A stretch of DNA of 64,000 bases from Alphaproteobacteria bacterium (GTDB taxonomy: Bacteria; Pseudomonadota; Alphaproteobacteria; UBA7887). Shown piece after piece: positions 37,665-38,484 of this stretch (positions are counted from its first letter, which is position 1; each line of letters starts with the position of its first letter). The translations under genes were made by a program, and so were the position numbers. Below the pieces are notes generated by a model. The model did not search any database, was not told the DNA's origin, and worked only from the letters and a program-made list of their open reading frames with translations. The stretch covers positions 2,534,340-2,598,339 of the forward strand of contig OZ241745.1 in assembly GCA_965201115.1 (NCBI GenBank), read 5' to 3'.

Positions 37665-38081
37665 TTAGCCGCCGACGCGGGGGCCTACCTCGGCGGAGCC
37701 CAGGGTCGAGGTCGTTCCGCCGCTGCTGGCGCAGCTCGGCAGGCACATGAGGGTGCTCGCCGTGCCGGCCGTTCCGAGCGTGTCGCCGCCCACCACCGAT
37801 TGCAGCTGTTCGTCGGCCAGCGCCGCGTTCGGGTCGGGCGGCATGACGATATGCAGGACGTCGCGGGTGTCGGGCACGAAACGCAGTTCGGCGTTGGGCG
37901 GCGGTTCGACGCCGAGTTCCCTTGCGGCCGCGGCGGTGTCGCCGGCCTCGACGCGCGCGCGCAGTTCCGCGTCGTTGCGGTAGCGCTCGCCGAAATTCGC
38001 GAATTTCTCAAGGCTTTCGCGGTCGTCTTTCGCGAAGCCCGCAAACCGCGCGCCCGCGGCTCGTGTTCTCGTTTCCTCCAT
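37665..38081 (-). CDS. NHLP-leader (proteusin-type) RiPP precursor 1
   Basis: AGGAG RBS; leader ..LHIVMPPDPN..LADEQLQSVVGG; Gly/Ser/Thr-rich core containing CLPSC. Confidence 0.85.
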   Translation of the reverse strand: MEETRTRAAGARFAGFAKDDRESLEKFANFGERYRNDAELRARVEAGDTAAAARELGVEPPPNAELRFVPDTRDVLHIVMPPDPNAALADEQLQSVVGGDTLGTAGTASTLMCLPSCASSGGTTSTLGSAEVGPRVGG

Positions 38082-38112
38082 TGGAATTTCTCCTGCCATT
38101 CGTGCGGCGCGG

Positions 38113-38484
38113 TCAGCTGTTCGGGCCCAGCGATCCCGCGGTGCCCAACGAAGACGCCGACCCGATACAGCTGGGCAGGCATCCGAAGGTTCCGACCGTT
38201 CCGCCGGAGCTGGCGGTTTGCGTGCCGGCGGCGACGCCGTGCAACGCCTCGTCGCCGAGATCCATGTTGGGGTCCGGCGGCATGATCATGTGAAATACGT
38301 CGTCGGTGTCGGCGACGATTCGCGTTTCGACCGATACGGGAAGTTCGATACCCCGTTCGGCAAGCACGGCGCGCGGCTCGGTTTCGATTCGCGCGCGCAA
38401 GCCGGCGTCGGCGCGGCATGCTTCCGCCAGCGCCGCGATGGCGGCGACCTCGGGACCGAGCGCCGCGCCTGCTGCGTTGTGCAT
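38113..38484 (-). CDS. NHLP-leader (proteusin-type) RiPP precursor 2
   Basis: GGAGGAGG RBS; leader EPRAVLAERGIELP..FHMIMPPDPN..LGDEALHGVAAG; core containing CLPSC. Confidence 0.88.
   Translation of the reverse strand: MHNAAGAALGPEVAAIAALAEACRADAGLRARIETEPRAVLAERGIELPVSVETRIVADTDDVFHMIMPPDPNMDLGDEALHGVAAGTQTASSGGTVGTFGCLPSCIGSASSLGTAGSLGPNS

Follow-up and report, generated by a model that had tools for sequence, protein, structure and literature searches.

Gene content of the locus

Two short genes lie in tandem on the minus strand of the window, by which we mean the whole 64-kb stretch of DNA analysed here. ORF calling showed that gene A (38113..38484, minus strand) encodes a protein of 123 aa and gene B (37665..38081, minus strand) a protein of 138 aa, both with the layout of NHLP-type precursors. 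In gene A, residues 1-87 (38224-38484) form the leader, where an L(X)4L motif (LGDEAL) is followed by the end HGVAAG, and residues 88-123 (38116-38223) form the core, TQTASSGGTVGTFGCLPSCIGSASSLGTAGSLGPNS. In gene B, the leader occupies residues 1-99 (37785-38081; LADEQL, then the end QSVVGG) and the core, DTLGTAGTASTLMCLPSCASSGGTTSTLGSAEVGPRVGG, residues 100-138 (37668-37784). The cores begin with TQ (A) and DT (B), end with NS and GG, respectively, and are both free of Trp. Each gene is preceded by a Shine-Dalgarno site that could be read directly from the sequence: GGAGGAGGG at 38489..38497 (plus-strand numbering), 4 nt 5' of the ATG of gene A, and AGGAGA at 38089..38094, with a spacer of 7 nt to the ATG of gene B at 38081. 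An alternative in-frame ATG of gene B at 38099 would give a 144-aa product and has no ribosome-binding site; the public gene calls use the 138-aa form. The two tandem genes and their ribosome-binding sites were thus found as the initial annotation had described them, and the leader ends (VVGG and VAAG) as well as the core sequences match it exactly. A promoter and terminator scan at the pair detected nothing, which is uninformative because of the 72% GC content.

To describe the surroundings, genes in the window were called with a codon-usage model, about 60 ORFs were compared with Pfam, and 14 maturase or export proteins from related clusters (none of them C39) were used as tblastn queries. 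The window is a stretch of ordinary alphaproteobacterial chromosome. It contains the his operon, ETF-QO, hpf/ptsN, trpS, murJ and glnD; a gene for a 2555-aa Gly/Ala-rich protein, a YhgA-like Transposase_31 gene, the precursor pair, and CYTH-CHAD and ParA-like genes; and PPK2, phaC, hom, glpX, recJ and a Type ISP restriction-modification enzyme. The Pfam comparison of the approximately 60 ORFs revealed no YcaO, rSAM, LanM or C39 gene within the 64-kb window, and the 14 tblastn queries gave zero matches there. Both searches being empty, the earlier statement that the 64 kb hold no maturase is borne out.

The YhgA-like transposase gene adjoining the pair is multicopy, and a pattern search located three copies of a REP-type repeat at 37439..37627, downstream of gene B. 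The next cluster of these repeats is 3.5 kb off, past the CYTH-CHAD and ParA-like genes. The window holds 15 copies, with 0 expected, and the same element is present on the contigs L001 and L169, which carry maturase loci (see below). The copies near gene B are thus members of a repeat family that occurs throughout the genome, and they do not mark this locus in particular. A REP-bounded cassette, as the pair had been described, was rejected, since the repeats lie on one side of the pair only, at 15 places across the window, and are common across the genome.

The leaders belong to the NHLP family

Searches with the NCBIfam model of the NHLP leader, TIGR03793, returned gene A with E = 1.1e-12 (47.6 bits) and gene B with E = 3.8e-7 (29.9 bits), both values being under the curated cutoff of 50.9 bits. 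The Pfam NHase_alpha family was matched with E = 5e-6 (A) and 9e-3 (B). Every relative that we tested also scores under the TIGR03793 cutoff; the window precursors and their relatives are therefore best placed in a divergent NHLP subfamily rather than outside the family. In a PDB search, the top match for both proteins was 8TB1, the NHLP precursor MprE7 (E = 5.9e-9 for A and 1.1e-6 for B), whose alignment spans almost the entire leader; the next matches were nitrile hydratase alpha chains. In both leaders the L(X)4L motif stands directly before the GG/AG end. Together with the alpha-1 helix, this motif is needed for binding to the YcaO RRE in PatE/LynD and MprE7/MprC, while equivalent leader binding in NstC/NstD is a prediction only (PMC12455567). 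These matches, significant although under the curated TIGR03793 cutoff, identify genes A and B by homology as encoding NHLP/proteusin-type precursors, in agreement with the initial annotation.

Candidate maturases probably lie elsewhere on the chromosome

An exact-sequence look-up of the gene A, gene B and CYTH-CHAD proteins of the window led to an NCBI contig of 3,674,140 bp. An NCBI contig also of 3,674,140 bp carries a 783-aa fused YcaO protein (P0047), the NHLP precursors P0006 and P0007, and an 847-aa LanM-like protein (P0200); judging from the equal length figure, these four proteins are most likely encoded on the same 3.67-Mb chromosome as the pair. The operon layout was read from metagenome proxy contigs of the same species and not from the source record.

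The first proxy, L001, has the REPs of the window and a GC content of 0.71, and it originates from the samples that also gave the pair-carrying contigs L011-L018. Its 783-aa YcaO scores above the cutoffs of TIGR03882 and TIGR03604, matches LynD/TruD/MusD from end to end (E about 1e-164), and is followed by four NHLP precursors; no other enzyme was found within about 5 kb of it. The second proxy, L169 (GC 0.72, with the window's REPs), encodes P0086, which is 97.6% identical to P0200. Its operon comprises a YcaO of 784 aa, a PoyD-like rSAM protein of 496 aa (E = 7.5e-86), a SagB-family dehydrogenase of 465 aa (156 bits against a cutoff of 78), and a LanM-N-terminal homolog of 848 aa without the cyclase part. 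The YcaO again scores above the cutoffs of both TIGR03882 and TIGR03604 and is a fused E1-like/YcaO cyclodehydratase. Upstream of the operon are two divergently oriented NHLP precursors with the cores GASSIGSAGTMSSIPSCISSAGTVSSWSG and GASSLGTVGSIGCFPSCLGSAGTISSWRDDNSPV, the centres of which read ...SSIPSCISSAG... and ...GCFPSCLGSAG.... Within the species, both window genes have these two as their best-scoring paralogs (98 and 97 bits). The species thus possesses no fewer than ten NHLP precursors, distributed over four loci, together with two YcaO systems.

The pair had been called an orphan. This is true within the 64-kb window, but the YcaO P0047, the LanM-like P0200 and more precursors are placed on the 3,674,140-bp contig, so that the orphan status is an artefact of the 64-kb view. 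No C39 or other leader-cleaving exporter was located in the source genome. The cognate enzymes are assigned to the chromosome of the pair, beyond the limits of the window, with the operon read from the 97.6%-identical proxy; the pair is therefore most likely matured in trans, which supports the trans maturation proposed in the initial annotation.

A question raised by these findings is which of the two YcaO systems would act on the pair. If only the stand-alone L001-type, LynD/TruD-like YcaO processed it, one would expect simple thiazoline/oxazoline peptides and not nostatin-like products. This reading draws on the presence of P0047 also on the 3,674,140-bp contig, beside four NHLP precursors and with no adjoining dehydrogenase or dehydratase, on the leader-only region of gene A, which is closest to L001_4 (56% identity), and on the MprC system, where one YcaO can serve ten NHLP precursors. 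In contrast, both window precursors in full length best match the precursors adjacent to the L169 operon, and the core centre CxPSC/IPSC is common to the window and L169 precursors and absent from the L001 cores. We therefore consider processing by the L001-type enzyme alone improbable.

The cores are built from one repeat unit around a central motif

The initial annotation had also reported that sequence blocks are swapped around CLPSC in the two cores. Taken literally the observation stands, since the LGTAG and ASSGG blocks do flank CLPSC on opposite sides in A and B, and the mirrored order is also kept in the orthologous pair of L020 (see below). We compared the four core flanks by pairwise local alignment with shuffling controls. 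The N- and C-terminal flanks of core A (TASSGGTVGTFG and SASSLGTAGSLG) align with each other with a score of 33 (p <0.0005), and those of core B with 25 (p 0.02). The cross comparisons gave 40 for the N flank of A with the C flank of B (p <0.0005) and 27 for the C flank of A with the N flank of B (p 0.003), and the colinear ones 30 for the two C flanks (p 0.04) and 22 for the two N flanks (p 0.10). By these scores, all four flanks are variants of one unit of about 11 residues, [ST]ASSxGTxGxxG, and it is the variant on each side that differs between A and B.

Related cores have a comparable design. The 133 distinct ones consist of 25% Ser, 17% Ala, 14% Gly and 14% Thr, and 62 of them contain a central PS[CTS]. 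Among these 62 cores, GTAG-like motifs occur on both sides of the centre in 33, only on the N side in 8 and only on the C side in 8, while ASSxG is N-terminal of it in 19 and C-terminal in 15. The motif CxPSC itself is seen again in L033, L052, L066 and L169, and relatives in L031/L026 have LGTAG-like units on both sides. In a MAFFT alignment of 37 family members the core is colinear and centred on [VIL]-P-S-[CT], and the leader elements PPDPN...L(X)4L...GG are conserved. A swap in the sense of a rearrangement was accordingly rejected: the flanks are one repeat unit, the family aligns colinearly, and both blocks occur on either side across the 62 cores. The mirrored order arises because a motif flanked by repeats yields such an order, and it is not evidence of rearrangement or antiparallel design; the swapped architecture and antiparallel pairing suggested earlier are better seen as a by-product of one repeat unit around a central motif.

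The same data bear on whether A and B form a dedicated two-component heterodimer, possibly antiparallel, with a functionally selected mirrored order. The cross alignments (40 and 27, compared with 22 and 30 for the colinear ones) and the mirrored order in L020 would fit such a pair, as would the order of an A-type followed by a B-type leader, which recurs in several alphaproteobacterial clusters (window, L020, L023, L030, L042, L050, L062 and L071). However, a single repeat unit accounts for all four flanks, both blocks are found on either side across the 62 cores, LGTAG-like units appear on both sides in the L031/L026 relatives, and many other loci have 3-5 precursors, or all-A or all-B sets; the conservation in L020 is a single event of shared ancestry and not independent support. 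A dedicated heterodimer is thus very unlikely.

Conservation of the pair and selection on the cores

Orthologs of gene A show 85-99% identity and those of gene B 70-92%. The same pair is present on sponge-metagenome contigs with 98% (L011-L018) and about 83% (L007-L010) nucleotide identity. Compared with L007, the dN/dS of the core is 0.05 for A, where 7 changes are synonymous and 1 is non-synonymous, and 0.19 for B, and that of the leader is 0.75 for A and 0.30 for B. The low core values support function and show purifying selection. In the sister lineage, gene B (L007_B, P0008) reads CLLSC and not CLPSC; therefore, the central Pro described as invariant in nostatin-type clusters is not invariant here. 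In another alphaproteobacterial MAG (L020/L021; OZ251461.1 via L075), an orthologous A/B pair (about 55% and 70% identity) is found with rpoD on one side and an Nramp gene on the other. The pair has thus been maintained at different sites of the chromosome, and in this other genus it is likewise remote from its maturases.

Decay of the pair into a non-functional duplicate of cluster precursors near mobile and repeat DNA, to which the adjoining multicopy YhgA-like transposase gene, the REP clusters and the absence of a local maturase from the window could point, is very unlikely, as both ORFs are intact with their ribosome-binding sites kept, the core dN/dS values are low, with mostly synonymous changes in core A, and the pair has been retained both in the sister lineage at 83% nucleotide identity and at another locus in another genus.

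A search with protein B for related loci in GTDB genomes returned no relatives. No RNA-labelled runs came up when expression evidence was sought; short contigs of run X11 over both genes were considered as such evidence and rejected, since coverage elsewhere was equally patchy.

Precursors and enzymes across the family

For a wider view, a degenerate DNA pattern built on PPDPN..L(X)4L..GG was run against GTDB genomes and yielded 116 precursor genes in 59 loci. Nearly all matches are in closed MAG chromosomes of Alphaproteobacteria, Gammaproteobacteria, Vicinamibacterales/Vicinamibacteria, Ca. Porisulfidus and Ca. Marinacidobacterium. The link to sponges holds for the window organism and is an assumption for the other pattern-matching MAGs. 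As determined by tblastn, YcaO, ThcOx, DUF4135 and PoyD-like rSAM genes recur together at many MAG loci. Relatives of A and B are also part of complete clusters: L029 contains 3-4 NHLP precursors, a DUF4135/LanM-like gene, a fused WHD-YcaO, a ThcOx/nitroreductase, HlyD and a C39 ABC exporter; L030 contains a YcaO, an rSAM protein, ThcOx, DUF4135, several precursors and an Asp/Arg hydroxylase; and L023-25 contains a YcaO, a PoyD-like rSAM protein, OEP and a hydroxylase.

The related genome OZ251461.1 has one full maturase operon with no precursor within 10 kb (L099) and a second YcaO adjoined only by precursors (L147). Another 22 pattern-matching precursor genes are distributed over 18 separate 8-kb blocks of this genome, none of which (0/18) overlaps either YcaO locus. 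This layout resembles that of the window genome and is more pronounced.

Comparison with known systems

The closest known counterpart is nostatin A, whose precursor has an NHLP leader and the core AASCQTTASSACTTPSCLSSASTASSNSCS (PMC11583998). The nst enzymes include the YcaO protein NstD, the oxidase NstE, the PoyD-like NstF, the LanM-like NstG and NstA, a class B cobalamin rSAM C-methyltransferase for proline alkylation, and the mature peptide type contains azoles, Dha/Dhb and a sactionine link (PMC11583998). Across homologous cyanobacterial and proteobacterial clusters, Pro15-Ser16-Cys17 and the core termini (AA... / ...CS) are reported to be invariant (PMC11583998). Nostatin A is reported to target the eukaryotic V-ATPase (bioRxiv 10.64898/2026.03.27.714872). 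The window precursors share with it the NHLP leader, a core of about 30-39 residues rich in Ser, Thr, Ala and Cys, and a central Pro-Ser-Cys with a nearby preceding Cys (C-T-T-P-S-C in nostatin, C-L-P-S-C in the window). The enzyme set is also shared, with the full set seen via the proxy L169: the fused YcaO, SagB-type dehydrogenase, PoyD-like rSAM and cyclase-less LanM-like proteins correspond to NstD, NstE, NstF and NstG. On the other hand, the window precursor genes are apart from their enzymes, and their host is a sponge-associated alphaproteobacterium rather than a Nostoc. The window cores consist of Gly-rich repeats and contain adjacent Ser/Thr pairs less often, their termini are TQ/DT...NS/GG instead of AA.../...CS, and none of the genes called up to 10 kb from the L169 operon has the domain of an NstA-like class B rSAM methyltransferase. 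Since the window system agrees with the nostatin A type (PMC11583998) in its cores, its central Pro-Ser-Cys and its enzyme set, the distinct RiPP subfamily proposed initially was not upheld, and the pair reads as an ordinary member of a known family, the azole-containing proteusins like nostatin A.

Other systems share individual traits. In the Mpr system of Methylovulum (MprE1-10/MprC), a single YcaO, MprC, can serve ten NHLP precursors (PMC12455567). The window leaders have MprE7 (8TB1) as their best match of solved structure and possess the L(X)4L motif, and service of many precursors by one YcaO is a further parallel. However, the Mpr cores are unrelated and the Mpr precursors are clustered with their enzyme, whereas the window system adds dehydratase and epimerase-like enzymes. 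The cyanobactin heterocyclases LynD and TruD are full-length homologs of the YcaO in the window genome. The srp proteusins (Nguyen et al. 2021) resemble the window system in their sponge microbiome origin, NHLP leader and YcaO-made azol(in)es; their cores end in a conserved LCCCW with a brominated Trp, which needs a halogenase of the SrpI type, while Trp is absent from the window cores, and neither the window nor L169/L001 yielded a halogenase. Proteusin cluster families with YcaO, PoyD, LanC-like and nitroreductase genes have been reported from sponge microbiomes (PMC9426513).

NHLP precursors remote from a cyclodehydratase, as well as large NHLP/Nif11 paralog families within a genome, have been known since 2010 (Haft et al. 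2010, PMC2887384). These dispersed libraries and the prochlorosins are comparable to the window system in their large paralogous families, remote shared maturase and Gly-Gly-type leader end. Prochlorosins differ in that they combine the lanthionine synthetase ProcM with Nif11 leaders, whereas the window system combines NHLP leaders with YcaO/SagB/LanM-N-terminal chemistry.

Proposed pathway and implications

Overall, we think it probable that the pair represents satellite precursors of a nostatin-type proteusin pathway, with products containing azoles and dehydroamino acids, in an uncultured sponge-associated alphaproteobacterium. Each precursor would combine a folded NHLP leader with a Ser/Thr/Gly/Ala/Cys-rich core made of two repeat copies around Cys-Leu-Pro-Ser-Cys. 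The enzymes could come from the L169-type operon, which is flanked by the two closest paralogs of the pair, or from the second, LynD/TruD-like fused YcaO with its four additional precursors. [quoted passage not shown] The LanM-like enzyme would then dehydrate other Ser/Thr residues, the PoyD-like enzyme may epimerise some residues, and the leader would be cut after the GG/AG motif during export. This chemistry is borrowed from the nostatin A, Mpr and cyanobactin systems, and each chemical step, the acting YcaO system, export and bioactivity are proposed by analogy with them.

A broader and rather doubtful suggestion is that Alphaproteobacteria living as sponge symbionts operate a prochlorosin-like combinatorial system with nostatin-type chemistry, in which one or two maturase operons would serve 10 to more than 20 NHLP precursors scattered among housekeeping genes, and A/B pairs would possibly give co-acting two-peptide products. 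Here, it may be noted that the maturase operon is at times without an adjacent precursor (L099, OZ251461.1). If this suggestion were true, the conserved A/B pairs could target host or competitor cells.

The present locus in itself carries little weight, as it adds two more precursors of a known RiPP type. At the level of the family the findings are modestly useful: the genes around the precursors are usually of the nostatin type, many of the precursors are encoded away from their enzymes, and precursor and enzyme sets are at hand for the heterologous expression of nostatin-like peptides from uncultured symbionts.

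Genomic surroundings of the precursor pair

The initial annotation had placed the pair next to an adhesin and a defence gene. The first of these fits a gene for a 2555-aa protein (27766-35433, minus strand), which is rich in Gly (19%), Ala (16%), Val (11%) and Thr (10%), has a signal-like N-terminus, carries degenerate repeats along its whole length and terminates in a beta-barrel-like end (...TLTVRF). This protein looks like an autotransporter-type adhesin and shows no Pfam match at E <= 1e-3. The supposed defence gene is probably the YhgA-like gene (Pfam Transposase_31; 36267-37430, minus strand) that adjoins the precursor pair, whose product bears an EARGLE-type short repeat at its C-terminus. 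This gene is multicopy, reaching about 10-30 times the depth of flanking single-copy DNA in sponge-derived assemblies; in run X1, for example, its depth was 700-2,600 vs about 75 for the flanking single-copy DNA.

The window contains 15 copies of a REP-type element (core GTGCGGGCAGGATGCCCGCG), where 0 would be expected. They lie at 41169-41885 and, as single copies, at 12217, 27703, 35688-36197, 37447-37609 and 63231; one of the occurrences is a six-unit tandem array with a 108-bp period. The element was used as a species marker and was also found on two YcaO-bearing contigs (L001 and L169) and on a contig carrying the pair (L016). Such repeats are also the break points of metagenome contigs.

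Two segments of lower GC were observed elsewhere in the window. The one between hisF and hisI (2564-4298; GC 0.60 vs about 0.72) encodes a ParA/AAA_31-like protein at 2564-3529, together with a minus-strand ORF (3531-4298) that has no Pfam match; this segment appears to have been inserted into the his operon. The other, within 55600-63205, is an island (GC 0.57-0.65) in which several ORFs have no Pfam matches, and it is adjoined by a 1146-aa Type ISP restriction-modification enzyme (59765-63205, minus strand; N6_Mtase and Type_ISP_C).

Variation of the central motif

In the sister lineage, gene B of the pair encodes CLLSC in place of CLPSC (L007:1373-1789; protein P0008), and another gene B protein (P0009) reads CLLST at this site. 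Thus, the central Pro, which is reported to be invariant among nostatin homologs (PMC11583998), is replaceable by Leu here. A further variant, CLPSR (P0002), was present on one contig only and may be a sequencing error. Separately, a 174-aa metagenome protein from one ENA contig (P0004) joins an isopentenyl-transferase-like N-terminus (PF01745) to gene A residues 25-123; this fusion probably arose through chimeric assembly or by rearrangement of the local sequence.

Dispersed precursor genes and probable substrate range

The related alphaproteobacterial MAG OZ251461.1 contains a full YcaO/PoyD-like/ThcOx/LanM-like/OEP operon (L099) with no precursor genes within 10 kb, as well as a second YcaO (L147) flanked by precursors only. 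Its 22 additional NHLP precursor genes are spread over 18 separate 8-kb blocks (L033-L090), a layout resembling a prochlorosin-like dispersed library. The genome of the window organism harbors further NHLP precursors (L001:8459-8779 and L019), with cores very unlike those of the pair, such as FCCQAIDLSCFVRN and LCTAGHSATPVTFGVNMWGGSSITTPSTYIAAGSTRGGTSSGQ. The YcaO systems of this genome probably handle chemically diverse substrates.
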